Below are positions 11,421 through 56,847 of a stretch of DNA of 64,000 nt, in pieces; position 1 is the first letter of the stretch; each line of letters starts with the position of its first letter. A program made the translations under genes and the position numbers. This DNA comes from Eledone cirrhosa. Taxonomy: Eukaryota. The stretch is taken from the NCBI GenBank assembly GCA_964016885.1, contig OZ024755.1:12276001-12340000 (forward strand), given 5' to 3'. The notes below the pieces were generated by a model. That model was not told where the DNA came from, searched no databases, and saw only the letters and a program-made list of their open reading frames with translations.

Positions 11421-11565
11421 GCTGTATAAATGAGAGAAACAAAACAGTCCATGTGTAGAGTGATATATATATATATTTTATTAATAATTGAGAAGCTACA
11501 CCAGTGAATTCAAATGGTAGAGCTTCACATATACGATAAAATATACGTTTATTATATGAATGTTT

Positions 11566-15870
<4,305 letters not shown>

Positions 15871-16097
15871 CATAAATTACATTTTCTTTTAAATAATAAA
15901 TAAATTTAATGTTGATGTGCAGCTCAATATTCGAAAAAGAAGAACTAATGTTTTCAAATGAATAATAAGCAAAAGCATCATATGTATTTTCTTGGAGTTT
16001 ATATTAAATAATGGTGCTCATTTCTGTTGATCCTAAATATTACTCTCACTGTTTAGTGAGTCCCTCAAAGAACAACCTCCTGAACATATTTTATGAA

Positions 16098-19163: not shown

Positions 19164-19255
19164 ACAAGAGATGTCGACATTTTTATCTAAAGACATTTTT
19201 TCCAATTCCAATTCCAACCCGCCCATCCCCTCAATCTATTTTATTTCTCATTCTT

Positions 19256-19291
19256 TCTTCTGATGAAGGACTAGCGTCCGAAACGTTAAGA
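19256..19291 (+). ncRNA. Minimal type I hammerhead ribozyme (family A)
   Basis: TCTT-CTGATGA-A-GGAC tagc GTCC-GAAAC-GTT-AAGA: intact core, 4-bp stem II, palindromic stem III, stem I TCTT/AAGA; lies in a TA-flanked insert 19160-19378. Confidence 0.75.
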
Positions 19292-19613
19292 CCCTCTTCC
19301 TGCTATATCAAGCATTAACCTAATATATCACTTCCATATACTGTACCAATTGTGTTGTTATTTCTGTTTATCTTTCATATATATATATATAGATAGATAG
19401 TTAGATAGATGTGTTTGTGTGTGTGTGTGTGTGTATGCAATGACACAAACTTCTTTTTATTAGCCATCCTCCCCTAAAAGCAGCTCCGTGGTCCCTGTTG
19501 CATAATAATTTTATTTCACTATGTAAGTATTACTTTTTACATGAGACCATTAATTGTTATATAGTAACTACATTATGTACTTGTTTCATTGTTCCATTGA
19601 TATTGTTGTTAAT

Positions 19614-28483: not shown

Positions 28484-28526
<43 letters not shown>

Positions 28527-28587
28527 GTGAGGTTTTTTTTTACAAAATGAAAAATAACCGAGGTGTCCTACACGAGTGAAAGTATAA

Positions 28588-28789
28588 AGAAAAAAAGATG
28601 AAATCGAAAATGCAACTGGAGTCTTATTTTAAAAAAAATATATATATTTATTTGGTTCCTTTACCGGTTTCGCAGTTCTTCTGCTTTTCAAAAGTAGAGG
28701 AAACGGAAGTAGGTAAAGGAACCAAATAAATATATATATTTTTTTTAAAATAAGACTCCAGTTGCATTTTCGATTTCATCTTTTTTTCT
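28588..28789. mobile_element. TA-embedded palindromic insert (~78-bp arms) with a U3-A8 variant HHR at 28659-28694 on the minus strand (family B)
   Basis: Arms 28588-28665 and 28712-28789; minus strand CTT-TTGAAAA-GCAG aagaa CTGC-GAAA-CCGG-TA-AAG. Confidence 0.7.
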
Positions 28790-29007
28790 ATATATATATA
28801 TATATTTATATATATTACAGGTACCAGTTTTTTGTTGGCAGCTACCAGTTATTGTATTGTAGGGTGGGTGTGCATATACAAAAAGGATATGGTGACTCAC
28901 CAATAGTCAATTGGACTGCGTACCTCTAATATTTAGTAATATCAATTGTGATATCAAATGAGATAAATTAATCGAATATAGGTAATCCACAAACTTTTAA
29001 ATCTACT

Positions 29008-29450
<443 letters not shown>

Positions 29451-31960: not shown

Positions 31961-32422
31961 GTTATTCCGGGTTGAGTCGGAGGTAACCACAGTAAGTAAG
32001 GTACTCAATACATTGCAGAGTATAAGAGTTTTAATATAGATGAGATTCTACAGGACTAGAACTGTTTCATTCTTTAGAAATCATCTGGAATCTGGGTATC
32101 AAAAAATAAGTATGGTATTTATAGGTCTCTTCGGGTGGTAGGAGAGGGTAGGGAGTGGGATGGGTGTAGGTCATTGGTTGATAGAAAAGGGAATTCATTA
32201 AAAGCTAATTCTTCAAAGCTATAGTTTATTTTTATATCTAAAAATAAACTATAGCTTTGAAGAATTAGCTTTTAATGAATTCCCTTTTCTATCAACCAAT
32301 GACCTACACCCATCCCACTCCCTACCCTCTCCTACCACCCGAAGAGACCTATAAATACCATACTTATTTTTTGATACCCAGATTCTTGATGATTTCTAAA
32401 GAATGAAACAGTTCTAGTGCTG

Positions 32423-32424
<2 letters not shown>
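31961..32424. mobile_element. TA-embedded insert with a near-perfect palindrome (32049-32424, 186-bp arms), each arm carrying an HHR fold (family C)
   Basis: 4-nt loop tatc at 32235-32238; minus 32043-32093 reads AGATTC-CAGATGA-TTTCTAAAGAAT-GAA-ACAG ttctagtc CTGT-A-GAATCT; plus copy at 32380-32424. Confidence 0.8.
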
Positions 32425-32454
<30 letters not shown>

Positions 32455-32600
32455 AAGAGAAAAAGATGAAATCGAAAATGCAACTGGGGTCTAATTTTTA
32501 AAAAAATATATATATTTATTTGGTTCCTTAACCGGTTTCACAGTTCTTCTGCTTTTCAAAAGTAGAGTTGAGATGGAGGGTCTGTGGTTTTTCTCACACA
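32455..32600 (-). mobile_element. Second family B insert with U3-A8 HHR (~32527-32562)
   Basis: Close match to 28588-28700; minus strand CTT-TTGAAAA-GCAG aagaa CTGT-GAAA-CCGG-TT-AAG. Confidence 0.7.
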
Positions 32601-33159: not shown

Positions 33160-33330
33160 TGTGTGAAAATTAAACAGAAAATAACACAGAAAGCAATACA
33201 GTACAATGAAGGCATATATTAGGTTAACACATGATATGATAGGAAATGAGTCTTAATGTTTCAGGTGCTAGTCCTTTATCAGAAGATAGACTGAGAAATA
33301 AAAGAAGAAATAGAAAGGTAGAGGAGGGTG
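33160..33330 (-). mobile_element. Second family A insert with a decayed HHR (33251-33286)
   Basis: Reverse complement aligns with 19240-19378; TCTT-CTGATAA-AGGACTAGCACCT-GAAACATT-AAGA. Confidence 0.7.
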
Positions 33331-33377: not shown

Positions 33378-33563
33378 AACAAAGAGGGTGTGGTAAGATA
33401 CCAGGTGGACCATAACGTACCAGAGTACTCAATACATAGGATAGTAGAGTGGGTAATAGGAAAAAGGCTGAGCTCTGGCTGTTTTGACAGCTAGATCCGA
33501 ACACATTCGGATTTAACTGTTGAAACGGTTGGAGCTCAGCCATCAGGGTCCAGACTCTTTTCC
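33378..33563 (-). mobile_element. TA-embedded hairpin insert (family H)
   Basis: ttcctattacccactctacta..gtattgagtact..ttatggtcca.ctgg is shared with 36500-36620 and 53915-54050; contains a ggctgagctc...gagctcagcc hairpin. Confidence 0.75.
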
Positions 33564-33618
33564 TATATATATATACATATATATATACACACACACATAT
33601 ATATACATATATATATAT

Positions 33619-36499: not shown

Positions 36500-36620
36500 A
36501 TAGGAACAAGTATGACCCCGACGGCAGAGCTCAAGCCGTTTCTATTACCCACTCTACTACCCTAAGTATTGAGTACTTTGGTGCGTTATGGTCCATCTGG
36601 TTCCTTACCACCTTTCCTTC
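36500..36620 (+). mobile_element. Family H insert
   Basis: Homologous to 33378-33563 and 53915-54050. Confidence 0.7.
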
Positions 36621-50415: not shown

Positions 50416-50655
50416 TATTTAATATAGAAATGGCTTCTACAGGACTAGAACTGTTTAATTTGGGAGAAATCATCAGGAAGCCGACTGTCCAAGGAATATG
50501 GTGTATAAATACCACCATATTACTTGGTGATTTCTCCCAAATTAAACAGTTCTAGTCCTGTAGAAGCCATTTCTATATTAAATATTTATACTCTGCTATG
50601 TATTGAGTACCTTACTTACTGTGGTTGCCCCCAATGGAACCCAGGATAAACTTAC
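50416..50655. mobile_element. Family C palindromic insert with HHR fold (50432-50482, -)
   Basis: Minus strand GGCTTC-CTGATGA-tttctcccaaat-TAA-ACAG ttctagtc CTGT-A-GAAGCC; inverted arm ~50528-50585; tail gtattgagtaccttacttactgtggtt shared with 31985-32011. Confidence 0.8.
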
Positions 50656-51037: not shown

Positions 51038-51540
51038 CATCATCATCATCATCGTTTAACGTCCATCTTCCACGCTAGCATGGGTTTGGACGGGTGTTTT
51101 CCCACTTGAGGCAAGAGTGGTTGTCTTGCTCGCATAGGACTACCTGGCGTGTTTTCTACGGCTGGATGCCCTTCCTAACACCAACCACGTTTACAGTGTG
51201 GACTGGGAGGTGTTTACCGTGTTACCTACATGGCCACATTACAGTGTGGACTGTGTGTTTTTTTTGTCGTGACACCTACATGACCTCATTTGTTTCGGAC
51301 TGGATGTTGTGTTACCAACATAACTTTACATTGAAAGGGGTGGTGTGGGTGGGGTGGGGGTAGTGGGACGAGGGTGTATTTTTGTTAGAGGTGCCTACTG
51401 ACTGTAGTATGTTTCACTTTGTACTTAGGTAAGGCGGGTCTTCTGTATTACTGTGTAGCACCAAAGATCTCGGTCCAGTGACATTGTCTTGGAGAGGTGT
51501 AAGTGTGTGAGGTCGGAATTTATCAGGTCGTCCCAGGTTT
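51038..51540 (-). mobile_element. Longest copy of SINE-like family S3
   Basis: Near-identical over ~250 bp to 63060-63313 and over ~120 bp to 53030-53156. Confidence 0.8.
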
Positions 51541-51672
51541 ATATATATATATATATATTGTGTGTGTGTATATATAAGCAAAGAGATATTCAATTTGCTG
51601 GTAATTCAACAAATTTATTTATTATAACAGATTCGAAGCACTCTACAGATTTTTTTCCTGGAGTATAATATG

Positions 51673-51965
51673 AATGATATTAATAAATAGAAACTATATT
51701 TATAAAACCATATTTATTTTATTATATATATTTCAAGGATACCAAAAAAACTTTGGTACGGTCTCATCAGATAAAATACAAAATTTGTTTTATCCAAATG
51801 GAACCTAAACTGATAATGCTTGGTTTATTGGGTATGTCACTATTTATAAAACAAATTTTGTATTTTATCTGATGAGAGCGTACCAAAGTTTTTTGGTACC
51901 CTTGAAATATATATAATAAAATAAATATGGTTTTATAAATATAGTTTCCATTTATTAATATCATT
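51673..51965. mobile_element. Palindromic insert (~120-bp arms) with two intact-core HHRs (family E)
   Basis: Plus 51863-51921 TTTTAT-CTGATGA-GAGCGTACCAAA..TTTGGTACCCTT-GAAA-TATATA-TA-ATAAAA; minus copy 51717-51776. Confidence 0.8.
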
Positions 51966-52240
51966 GTATATATATATATATAAATTAATAAAAACAATGA
52001 ATAAAAACAAAGAAACAGTTCCTTATATTAAAAAATTCATCATTTTACGATCATATGATATATATGTGTGTGTTGGTATGTATATCATATAGATCTATGT
52101 AAAAATTTTACAAACTATCAGAGGGAATATACATACCTACACATATATATGCTGTCTTCAGAAATAATATATATATATATATATAAATCAAAGGTATATA
52201 AAGTATTGTAGCAAGAAGCCAACAATATTCCATAATATAT

Positions 52241-52288
<48 letters not shown>

Positions 52289-52291
<3 letters not shown>

Positions 52292-52625
52292 GATATTAAT
52301 AAATGGAAACTATATTTATAAAACCATATTTATTTCATTATACATATTTCAGGGATACCAAATTAAATTATGGTATGCCTTCATCAGACAAAATACAATA
52401 TATAACAGTTTTACAAATAAGCTTTGACGTACCCTTTTAAAATGCGACCATTATTTTTGGAAGCCATCAGGTATCCCTGAAATATGTATAATGAAATAAA
52501 TATGGTTTTATAAATATAGTTTCCATTTATTAATATCGTATATCTACTCCAAATACTTGTCGAGTGCTTTATATCAGTTATAAAAATATTTACTTGTTGT
52601 ATCCCAACAATTTTAAATAGAACTT
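52289..52625. mobile_element. Second family E palindromic insert with HHR (52333-52393, -)
   Basis: Minus strand TTTTGT-CTGATGA-AGGCATACCA..TGGTATCCCT-GAAA-TATGTA-TA-ATGAAA; ~70-bp arms 52289-52359 / 52470-52540; gtcgagtgc motif at 52559. Confidence 0.78.
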
Positions 52626-52626
52626 T

Positions 52627-52670
<44 letters not shown>

Positions 52671-52907
52671 CGTGTGTGTGTATATATATGTATCTACATA
52701 TATATATATGTGTGTGTATGTATATACTGTTATCTACCTGCCTATGGTAGAGCTAATAACATTGTTAGAACTCCATGTAGTACAGAAGGAATAATTCCGA
52801 GATCAAGCGATGAGAATTCTTATTTTTGTAGTAGGTCTTTCATCATATTGGATTCCTTTGAGCATTCAGACGAGCTACAGAGTCATGTATATGTGTGTGG
52901 GTGTGTG

Positions 52908-53914: not shown

Positions 53915-54050
53915 GTTAGACAGCTAGATCCAGATCTCAGAGCTCAGCTGTCAGGCTCCTGACTCTTTTCCTATTACCCACTCTACTACACTAAGTATCA
54001 AGTACTCTGGTGCGTTATGGTCCATCTGGTTCATTACCACACTTGCTTTG
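53915..54050 (+). mobile_element. Family H insert
   Basis: Homologous to 33378-33563 and 36500-36620. Confidence 0.7.
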
Positions 54051-54130
<80 letters not shown>

Positions 54131-54894: not shown

Positions 54895-55037
54895 TATAAA
54901 TGTACCAGCAATACACTGGGGTTGGTTAATCAGCTGTATCACACCTCCTGCTATAATTGTTTTGCATATAAGTACAAAACTAATACTTCTTGCAAACCAG
55001 AAAATTAAACAATTAGTTTGATTATAATCAGATATAC

Positions 55038-56847
55038 ACATTCCATTTCTTAGCCATCACCATCACATTCCATTTCTTAGCAATCACATTCCATTTTTTA
55101 GCAATCACATTCCATTTCTTAGCCATCACCATCACAAGTCCATTTCTTAGCCATCACCGTAACACTTCCTTTCTTAATCACCATCCCATTCCATTTCTTA
55201 GCTAGCCATCACCATCACATTCCATTTCTTAGCCATCACCATAACACTTCCTTTCTTAGCCATCACCATCACATTCCACTTCTTAGTCATCATCATCATC
55301 ACACTCCATTTCCTTTCTAAGTCATCACCATTACCTCCCGTTTTTTAGTTATCACCATCACACTCTATTTCTTAGTCATCACCATCACATTTCATTTCTT
55401 AACCATAAACATCATACTCCATTTTTTAGTCATCCCCACCATACTCTATTTCTTAGCCCTCACCACCATTCTTCATTTTCTTGTCATCATATTTACACAC
55501 CATTCCCTTTCTTAGCCATCACCAATACAATCCATTTCATCATCATCACCATCACACTCCATTTCTTAATCATAACTATTGCTTTCTATTTCTTAGTCAT
55601 CAGCATCTCACTTCATCATCACCATCACAATCCATTTCTTAGCCATCACTACCACACTCTATTTCTTAGTTATCATCACATTCCATTTCTTAATCATCAC
55701 CATCACACTCTATTTCTTAGTCATCACCATCACATTCTATTTCTTAGTCATCACCATCACATTCTATTTCTTAATTATCACTATCACACTACAGTTCTTA
55801 GCCATCACCATCACTCTCCATTTCTTAGCCATCACCAACACATTCCATTTCTTAACTATCACCATCATGCTGCATTTCTTAACCATCACCATCACTCTCC
55901 ATTTCCTAGCCATCACCAACACATTCCATTTCTTAACTATCAACATCATACTGCATTTCTTAACCATCACCATCACTCTCCATTTCCTAGCCATCACCAA
56001 CACATTCCATTTCTTAACTATCAACATCATACTGCATTTCTTAACCATCACCATCACTCTCCATTTCCTAGCCATCACCAACGCATTACATTTCTTAACC
56101 ATCACCATCATGCTGCATTTCTTAACCATCACCATCACTCTCCATTTCCTAGCCATCACCAACGTATTACATTTCTTAACCATCACCATCATGCTGCATT
56201 TCTTAACCATCACCATCACTCCATTTCCTAGCCATCACCAACACATTCCATTTCTTAACCATCAATATCATACTGCATTTCTTAACCATCACCATCACTC
56301 TCCATTTCCTAGCCATCACCAACACATTCCATTTCTTAACCATCACCATCATGCTGCATTTCTTAACCATCACCATCACTCTCCATTTCCTAGCCATCAC
56401 CAACACATTCCATTTCTTAACCATCACCATCATGCTGCATTTCTTAACCATCACCATCACTCTCCATTTCCTAGCCATCACCAACACATTCCATTTCTTA
56501 ACTATCAACATCATACTGCATTTCTTAACCATCACCATCACTCTCCATTTCCTAGCCATCACCAACACATTCCATTTCTTAACCATCAATATCATACTGC
56601 ATTTCTTAACCATCACTATCACTCTCCATTTCCTAGCCATCACCAACACATTCCATTTCTTAACCATCACCATCATGCTGCATTTCTTAACCATCACCAT
56701 CACTCTCCATTTCCTAGCCATCACCAACACATTCCATTTCTTAACCATCACCATCATGCTGCATTTCTTAACCATCACCATCACTCTCCATTTCCTAGCC
56801 ATCACCAACACATTTCTTAACCATCAATATCATACTCCATTTCTCAT
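55038..56847. repeat. 27-bp minisatellite; the distal ~1 kb forms an 81-bp trimeric higher-order repeat
   Basis: Monomers catttcttaaccatcaccatcatgctg / catttcttaaccatcaccatcactctc / catttcctagccatcaccaacacattc repeat in order ~12 times over 55845-56810; diverged monomers upstream. Confidence 0.93.

Follow-up and report, generated by a model that had tools for sequence, protein, structure and literature searches.

Two neighbouring palindromes that together carry three hammerhead ribozyme motifs lie between simple repeats in a 64,000-nt stretch of the Eledone cirrhosa genome (contig OZ024755.1, positions 12,276,001 to 12,340,000; hereafter the window, with coordinates counted from its first letter). 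They raise the question of what these inserts are, how their mirror-image structure arose, and whether the ribozymes they carry are still active. The window is AT-rich and rich in microsatellites, with (TA)5+ tracts making up 8.3% of it, and includes a 4.3-kb degenerate (TA)n array (11553-15877) and a 1.8-kb tandem repeat with a period of ~81 nt (55036-56844). Among 110 translated frames (3 frames together with 107 selected by complexity from the 458 that reach 45 aa), the only one to pass in Pfam was a C2H2 zinc-finger exon at 1748-2365, 99% identical to Octopus sinensis zinc finger protein 99, which points to an octopus host. This is the last exon of a zinc-finger gene, and the inserts are located about 49 kb downstream of it; as the gene ends there, no host transcript is known over the inserts.

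A strict scan of the whole window for type I hammerheads returned exactly three matches, where 50 shuffles gave a mean of 0.06 and a maximum of 1. The three perfect CTGATGA/GAAA cores reported in the initial annotation are thus genuine, and AUA is the cut triplet in all three copies. The scan matches and the extents of the hammerheads are as follows.

51717-51776, minus strand: scan match with CTGATGA and GAAA (copy 1)
51863-51921, plus strand: scan match with CTGATGA and GAAA (copy 2)
52333-52393, minus strand: scan match with CTGATGA and GAAA (copy 3)
51710-51784, minus strand: hammerhead copy 1, including the whole of stem I; core 51770-51764, GAAA 51734-51731, predicted cut after 51723
51855-51928, plus strand: hammerhead copy 2; core 51869-51875, GAAA 51904-51907, predicted cut after 51915
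52326-52401, minus strand: hammerhead copy 3; core 52387-52381, GAAA 52350-52347, predicted cut after 52339

When the three copies were aligned, 74 of the 78 cells over 26 stem pairs were paired, and this register (94.9%) exceeded all six slid versions (41-60%). Stem II was correctly described as varying yet staying paired, with two pairs changed on both sides; such two-sided changes are not above the shuffle control (103/500), and three sequences are too few for this comparison. Stem I, previously given as 6 bp, actually consists of 8 bp, a bulged G and up to 5 further bp. The third stem II pair is broken in copy 1, which fails a stricter descriptor, and copy 3 has a pair-breaking change in stem II near the loop; stem II pairing is kept in the variants seen as loose ends. 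Position 10.1/11.1 is G.U in copies 1 and 2 and A-U in copy 3, and none of the three has an extra base between 9 and 10.1. Copy 2, with the helix III octamer ATATATAT, is the best preserved. The all-AU helix III of the initial annotation holds for copies 1 and 2, whose octamer is a pure AT repeat, but not for copy 3, whose octamer ATATGTAT contains a G. Helix III is self-complementary, with an octamer self-duplex of -3.2 kcal/mol in copies 1 and 2 and -2.2 kcal/mol in copy 3. A fourth, half hammerhead, with the 3' half only, is located in the right arm of the second insert and begins inside stem II at 52470.

Rfam gave no match at gathering score in the window. At E<=10, 38 weak matches were found within 51600-52700, none of them a hammerhead, led by microRNA-precursor models that fit hairpins and microsatellites; a microRNA reading of the hairpins was rejected, as all model matches are below the gathering score. 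Two other intact hammerhead cores, at 19260 (plus strand) and 54377 (minus strand), have G10.1-C11.1 and the extra base and no adjoining antisense arm. The sequence 19239-19376 has a decayed relative at 33165-33303.

Alignment of the four arms in the element sense revealed a single layout that occurs in both inserts, which are oppositely oriented. Each insert pairs, head to head, a longer arm without a tail and a shorter arm with a tail of 86-94 nt.

51539-51577, no strand: left flank of insert 1, (TA)n/(TG)n from the sequence; the right flank is (TA)n from 51967
51578-51671, minus strand: one-sided tail of insert 1 (94 nt), homologous to the tail of insert 2
51672-51793, minus strand: short, tailed arm of insert 1, 117/123 identical to the long arm
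51791-51966, plus strand: long, tail-less arm of insert 1, from the arm alignment; 51791-51844, earlier taken for a spacer, is upstream element sequence
52243-52290, no strand: left flank of insert 2, (TA)n from the sequence; the right flank is (AT)n at 52630-52667
52291-52471, minus strand: long, tail-less arm of insert 2, including its upstream 'spacer', from the arm alignment
52470-52543, plus strand: short arm of insert 2, with the 3' half of the hammerhead only, 73/73 identical to the long arm
52544-52629, plus strand: one-sided tail of insert 2 (86 nt), from homology to the tail of insert 1; depth ends near 52630

The full extents are therefore 51578-51966 for insert 1 and 52291-52629 for insert 2. 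The initial annotation had placed both at 51673-52625; two inserts are indeed there, but insert 1 begins at 51578 and its 94-nt tail falls outside that interval. The palindromic nature of both inserts was confirmed by the arm identities, counted after removal of two flanking columns, and their opposite orientation by the tail and the long arm. The centre of insert 1 is a 3-nt overlap of the long and short arms (51791-51793), and that of insert 2 is a 2-nt overlap at 52470-52471, read with an X4 loose end behind 52468. Repeats of (TA)n type adjoin all four insert ends, and the flanks are microsatellite in which a target-site duplication is not legible; no empty site was observed.

The tails of the two inserts are homologous (69/102 columns, 0/2000 shuffles), and so are the upstream parts of the two long arms (57/89 columns over the whole upstream part). 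In an alignment of the spacers only, the same-sense score was reached by 24/2000 shuffles, as against 552/2000 for the opposite sense. The spacers had been regarded as different and unrelated; both are in fact homologous upstream sequence of the long arm. Within each insert the arms have subfamily-specific bases in common, and the centres of the two inserts differ. Near-identical arms with common subfamily bases argue for one template type and one event per insert, which supports the earlier proposal of independent events with the same architecture. Insert 2 looks younger than insert 1. The AU-rich 3' stretch outside the core is conserved between the subfamilies (58/63).

We also observed that this stretch (51925-51961 and its equivalents), which runs from the hammerhead to the tail-less end, is near-invariant between subfamilies, more so than stem II. 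It is a candidate protein-recognition or initiation element.

These features point to the ends of Penelope-like elements (PLEs). The PLE unit has been described as an inverted, 5'-truncated copy with a tail at one end, inserted into microsatellite or (TA)n targets, in the accessible parts of PMC8557442 and PMC3846280. Here we found an inverted, 5'-truncated head-to-head copy and a one-sided tail in both inserts, a type I hammerhead close to the repeat's 3' end, (TA)n targets at all four ends, and the small self-complementary helix III, unstable as a monomer, of a PLE variant. The same layout of palindrome, one-sided tail and (TA)n occurs in at least two other families in the window. Two features fit less well: the tail of 86-94 nt, against 30-40 nt in the papers, counts against the assignment, and the minimal PLE consensus (Cervera 2014) is departed from in that there is no G10.1-C11.1 pair and no extra base, as in a published variant group. 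The accessible part of PMC4209133 describes A10.1-U11.1 and cleavage after A in D. willistoni and M. japonicus, the latter without an extra base after A9. Membership of the PLEs is read from the anatomy of the ends, since no reverse-transcriptase ORF is linked to the inserts; none of the 110 frames of the window matched the RT or GIY-YIG families of Pfam, and such an ORF is not expected in stubs this short. No exact 30-nt match was found in metagenome, viral or prokaryote contigs.

All these indicate that the inserts are very probably independent, 5'-truncated, head-to-head insertions into (TA)n of the hammerhead end of one high-copy PLE family, hereafter family E, with the hammerheads predicted to be passengers locked in arm-arm hairpins. 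The motifs are real motifs of a known system, and the family is at most a new member of it. The absence of a canonical hammerhead that marks the Naiad clade was not seen here, where full hammerheads are present. Two 19-nt motifs of the family were absent from the accessible part of the PMC8557442 supplement listing Octopus Naiads, in which line breaks could hide a match, and no description of hammerhead-bearing PLE stubs in Octopus was found in the literature listings. O. vulgaris repeats include 31 recently active Penelope-like families according to the accessible part of PMC13282606, in which neither 'ribozyme' nor 'palindrom' was found; its supplement could contain family E.

To place the inserts in their family, we compared a 1141-nt stretch spanning them with the records of four sequencing runs, with the flanks skipped as repeats and the small-share runs X6-X11 left out. 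The listing of runs with this sequence named no RNA data set, a result taken as evidence in neither direction. Run X1 may be the source sample of the window, X4 is another sample of the same study and its kind of run is unrecorded, X5 carries another organism label, and X12 is a RAD library from another study with the same species label. The stretch was matched by 12,271 X1 contigs, 39,350 X12 reads, 141 X5 contigs and 1,825 X4 records, mostly on the arms and tails, with a part on an unrelated repeat (52008-52163). These numbers make plain that the family is high-copy, although the summed depth is not a copy number. Two 3' ends recur about 90 nt apart: one without the tail at 52543 (61 X1 contigs, 5460 X12 reads) and one with it close to 52630. 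Peaks of X12 read starts and ends (51785, 52369, 52375, 52612) were rejected as biology, as they come from a RAD library and resemble restriction cuts.

A at position 10.1 (51876) accounts for 54% of X1 depth, and the helix III G of copy 3 (52343) is retained in 77% of the summed depth of the X1 contigs at that position. The two arms of insert 1 differ by substitution at four sites, and X12 reads there mostly agree with copy 2. At 51761 the pairing base is present in 74/83 X12 reads on one strand but in 22/51 on the other, and X1 departs from copy 2 at 51739 and 51761. This majority suggests that copy 1 is the more decayed, including its broken stem II pair. Only one core substitution, at the free position 7 (52383), was found among the 40 of 261 substitutions listed, where about 2 are expected by chance, so that core conservation across the genome is only weakly tested by this count; the AU-rich 3' stretch outside the core is conserved no less. 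In the insert 1 spacer (51799-51827), 7 of 29 positions differ from most of the few reads there, and the arms differ little; this is either private decay or a minor subfamily.

The upstream ends of the two long arms fall at nearly the same position, at most about 5 nt apart (51791-51795 and 52470-52471), an observation that was made post hoc on two cases. Such stops in diverged subfamilies are not predicted by random truncation, and may reflect a preferred stop site. They would also be expected if the inserts were a short, non-autonomous unit of about 270-390 nt with fixed ends, copied whole in the manner of a retrozyme or MITE, and animal retrozymes have been proposed as PLE derivatives (bioRxiv 10.64898/2026.07.22.740005, in its accessible part). 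We consider this improbable. The centres differ not only between the two inserts but also among other copies, as among the 15 of 62 joints listed there are joints with other centres (51739-51899, 52329-52530, 52351-52486 and 52352-52477), and no tandem head-to-tail joint of retrozyme type is among these 15. Other copies reach further upstream, as seen in the X4 loose end behind 52468 and in an 853-nt X4 contig whose first 748 nt lie off the 1141-nt stretch. X1 depth upstream of copy 3 drops from 875,168 to 296,614 and then to 68,325, as in progressive truncation. The reading of the inserts as truncated PLE ends is retained.

How the two arms of such an end came to face each other is constrained by their asymmetry. 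Only one arm carries the tail and only the other carries the upstream piece, and the same is observed in 50418-50649, an insert of another family. A single folded-back cDNA cannot give both arms in this arrangement, since a fold-back can copy only what the cDNA already has, and two separate passes over the template are needed. In vitro, the protein of an Anolis PLE cleaved AT-rich DNA on both strands and extended each of them, with two internal reverse-transcription start sites bounding the tail (PMC11167929, accessible part). From these observations and the PLE literature, we propose that the GIY-YIG endonuclease of the element would nick both strands of an AT-rich target, that reverse transcription would proceed from each nick at one of two internal RNA start sites, the tail end or about 90 nt upstream, and that both cDNAs would stop early and anneal at their ends over a few bases. 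The mirror image would then be rebuilt at every insertion from two early-stopped cDNAs. Priming from both nicks at two start sites, followed by joining, is in our analysis the somewhat favoured route.

An alternative to this priming step, for the same element, is that the palindrome was made by self-priming or by folding back (an antisense template, for instance, was proposed by Arkhipova et al. 2013), with the tail of the long arm then lost through one-sided trimming. Fold-back has been proposed for head-to-head PLE repeats (PMC3846280), the tail has been ascribed to endonuclease resolution of an intermediate (PMC8557442), and the head-to-head mechanism is called unresolved in the latter, in the accessible part of each source. 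The centre overlaps of 2-3 nt fit fold-back priming equally, and one X1 joint (52352-52477) has a stem II-like hairpin as its entire centre. However, fold-back requires an extra trimming step, always at the same base, whereas two start sites and extension on both strands were shown directly in vitro, according to the accessible part of PMC11167929. We regard fold-back with trimming as possible, though clearly the less probable of the two. The anatomy of tail and upstream piece rules out a simple fold-back that copies itself, and agrees with the biochemistry of PAc, the Poseidon element of Anolis carolinensis, in which two start sites and both strands are used.

The initial annotation also noted that helix III resembles the (TA)n target, calling any role for it speculation. 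One such role would be that helix III evolved to match this target, with the cleaved end of the RNA annealing to the nick so as to prime insertion. The pure AT repeat in the octamer of copies 1 and 2 accords with such a role, as does an insert of another family (32049-32424) whose tail-less arm ends at the hammerhead cut site. All four arms of family E, however, extend past the cleavage site by 48-51 nt or more, X12 depth remains steady beyond it (15,259 then 15,369), and the insert-2 subfamily has a G in the octamer. PLE hammerheads generally have a palindromic helix III, for which dimer pairing is the explanation (PMC4209133 and the review PMC6765202, accessible parts), an AU-only palindromic helix III (AUAUAU) is already known for D. 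virilis Penelope from the accessible part of the PMC4209133 supplement, and hammerhead mutants had no effect on insertion in vitro in the accessible part of PMC11167929. Helix III as a mimic of the target is thus unsupported here, and a priming role of helix III is very unlikely.

The copies had also been called the best candidates for still-active ribozymes. In the accessible part of PMC4209133, PLE hammerheads with a palindromic helix III need dimers, and pairs on opposite strands lie 100-700 bp apart. We predicted folding at 37 C, without tertiary contacts or proteins. The predicted pairing probability of helix III in the monomer is 0.000, and in single-insert contexts the hammerhead fold costs 74.7, 75.3 and 39.8 kcal/mol (about 40-75) relative to the hairpin between the arms. 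In the head-to-head geometry, the antisense arm precedes the sense hammerhead in any read-through RNA. The antisense arm coming first and this penalty together predict that the genomic copies are silent where they are, with the hammerheads locked in long arm-arm hairpins and not cutting. The best-candidate claim is accordingly unsupported in place, and other cores in the window lack an antisense arm.

The modelled outcome differs for excised copies. The double hammerhead of a copy 2 dimer reaches -29.4 kcal/mol against -26.2 for two monomers, and the best two-strand fold is 2.2 lower still; for copy 1 (-19.2 vs -20.8) and copy 3 (-21.6 vs -24.4), dimers drawn by hand are weaker than two monomers. 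Cleavage by excised copy 2 as a dimer is plausible on these energies, and copy 2 appears a fair template for a test-tube dimer assay, while the model predicts a negative result for 51863-51921 as a monomer.

Working ribozymes in place, for example through copies 3 and 1 dimerising on one minus-strand transcript, would require these obstacles to be overcome. The three cores are intact, copies 3 and 1 share a strand at a distance of 617 nt, the lowest-energy two-strand fold of these two, when excised, contains a shared helix III, and the Anolis PLE hammerhead is protein-assisted (PMC11167929, accessible part). Against this, forming the two hammerheads within the 1081-nt minus-strand context carries a predicted cost of 39.8 and 62.0 kcal/mol, and stem II has lost a pair in copy 1 and, close to the loop, in copy 3. 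We consider activity in place highly improbable, and keep to the reading of hairpin-locked passengers. In the parent element, the hammerhead might work only as a dimer, through the self-complementary 8-nt helix III, or with protein help, and it would be kept by selection on the parent lineage and not on the stubs.

Comparable palindromes are found elsewhere in the window. A second family (31961-32424 and 50418-50649) has the same palindrome, a one-sided tail of ~85-90 nt and a hammerhead-like motif with a longer helix III; in one case, its first copy, the end of the tail-less arm coincides with the predicted GUA cut site. A third family includes a palindrome with a left tail, in which the tailed arm is the longer, and a solo copy (28521-28790 and 32458-32567); by eye, its core resembles the U3-A8 variant listed for Schistosoma PLEs. 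Older, decayed palindromes lie by (TA)n at 29008-29349 and 33378-33565 (relatives at 36525-36611 and 53966-54052), and are probably further PLE-end families.

If transcribed, the stubs are predicted by the folding model to form 73-122 bp double-stranded RNA instead of ribozymes. We searched for near-perfect hairpins with 50-mers taken every 10 nt, filtered for low complexity and requiring an inverted partner of at least 95% identity over at least 40 nt within 2 kb. In the window, 65/6395 50-mers qualified, a share of 1.0% that is not a genome value, as the window was picked for palindromes. Five tail-bearing palindromes held 61 of these 65 (20 in family E), the decayed palindrome at 29008-29349 held 2, and 2 were elsewhere. 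For comparison, Porath et al. 2017 (PMC5625713) found 4.4 near-perfect dsRNA loci per 1000 in octopus (0.44%, by their own method), which is exceptionally many; in the accessible part of that paper, octopus hyper-editing is the highest, octopus is omitted from the repeat analysis, and lizard Penelope is heavily edited. The stubs are thus a concrete, countable candidate source of octopus near-perfect double-stranded RNA.

Run X4 offers a lead in this direction. The run is enriched in sequence of insert 2: its depth relative to X1 is 0.04-0.13 over insert-2 sequence, 0.006 over an insert-1 arm and 0.0004-0.002 over the neighbouring repeat. A>G and T>C together account for 50 of the 101 changed places in X4, compared with 126 of 403 in the remaining three runs (Fisher p 0.001); among transitions only, the excess has p 0.03, and the places are not independent. 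T>C on the plus strand at 52399, an A-to-G change in outer stem I when read on the element strand, makes up 72% of X4 depth (53 contigs) and occurs in 0/718,305 of X1 and 1/6327 X12 reads. If X4 is RNA, these changes possibly reflect a subfamily that is transcribed and A-to-I edited; they are a lead only, since X4 comes from another sample and allelic differences can look like editing. That PLE-end palindromes are the main double-stranded RNA source of octopus hyper-editing, with the insert-2 subfamily transcribed and edited, including a hammerhead stem I adenosine, is a tentative proposal that we hold to be rather doubtful. At 52368, T>C on the plus strand (A>G on the element strand) was observed in 62% of X4 depth and is nearly absent from X1, X5 and X12.

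The inserts as found are a routine by-product of a known retroelement class, and their likenesses and differences can be stated system by system, for each published system from the accessible part of its source. The EN+ PLE insertion unit (PMC3846280, PMC8557442) likewise has an inverted head-to-head copy, an optional tail at one end, microhomology at the junction and insertion into (TA)n or AT-rich sequence; the inserts differ in that 340-390 bp is left, without an ORF, and in their longer tail (86-94 vs 30-40 nt). The type I hammerheads of metazoan PLEs (PMC4209133), especially the D. virilis Penelope, D. willistoni and Marsupenaeus japonicus variants, are close relatives, with a CUGANGA/GAAA core, a long helix II, a short self-complementary helix III, the need for dimers, and U-rich 5' and AU-rich 3' flanks. 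Compared with them, the copies here have an 8-mer helix III, a stem I of 8 plus up to 5 bp and a conserved C.C mismatch in helix II after 3 bp, and lack G10.1-C11.1 and the extra base.

The animal non-LTR retrozymes (bioRxiv 10.64898/2026.07.22.740005) are also short, non-coding, equipped with a type I hammerhead and related to PLE ends, but they are head-to-tail tandems, whereas the inserts here are head-to-head pairs with a PLE tail. PAc (PMC11167929) shares with family E two recurring 3' ends that bound the tail downstream of the hammerhead, AT-rich targets and extension of both strands. In PAc the start lies in an AC-rich stem-loop without homology to the target, and the ORF begins in the hammerhead; an ORF starting from the core ATG was rejected here, as its reading frame hits a stop within 14 codons. 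The tail-less end of the inserts lies instead in an AT stretch encoded by the element, with up to 5 nt in common with the target in insert 2.
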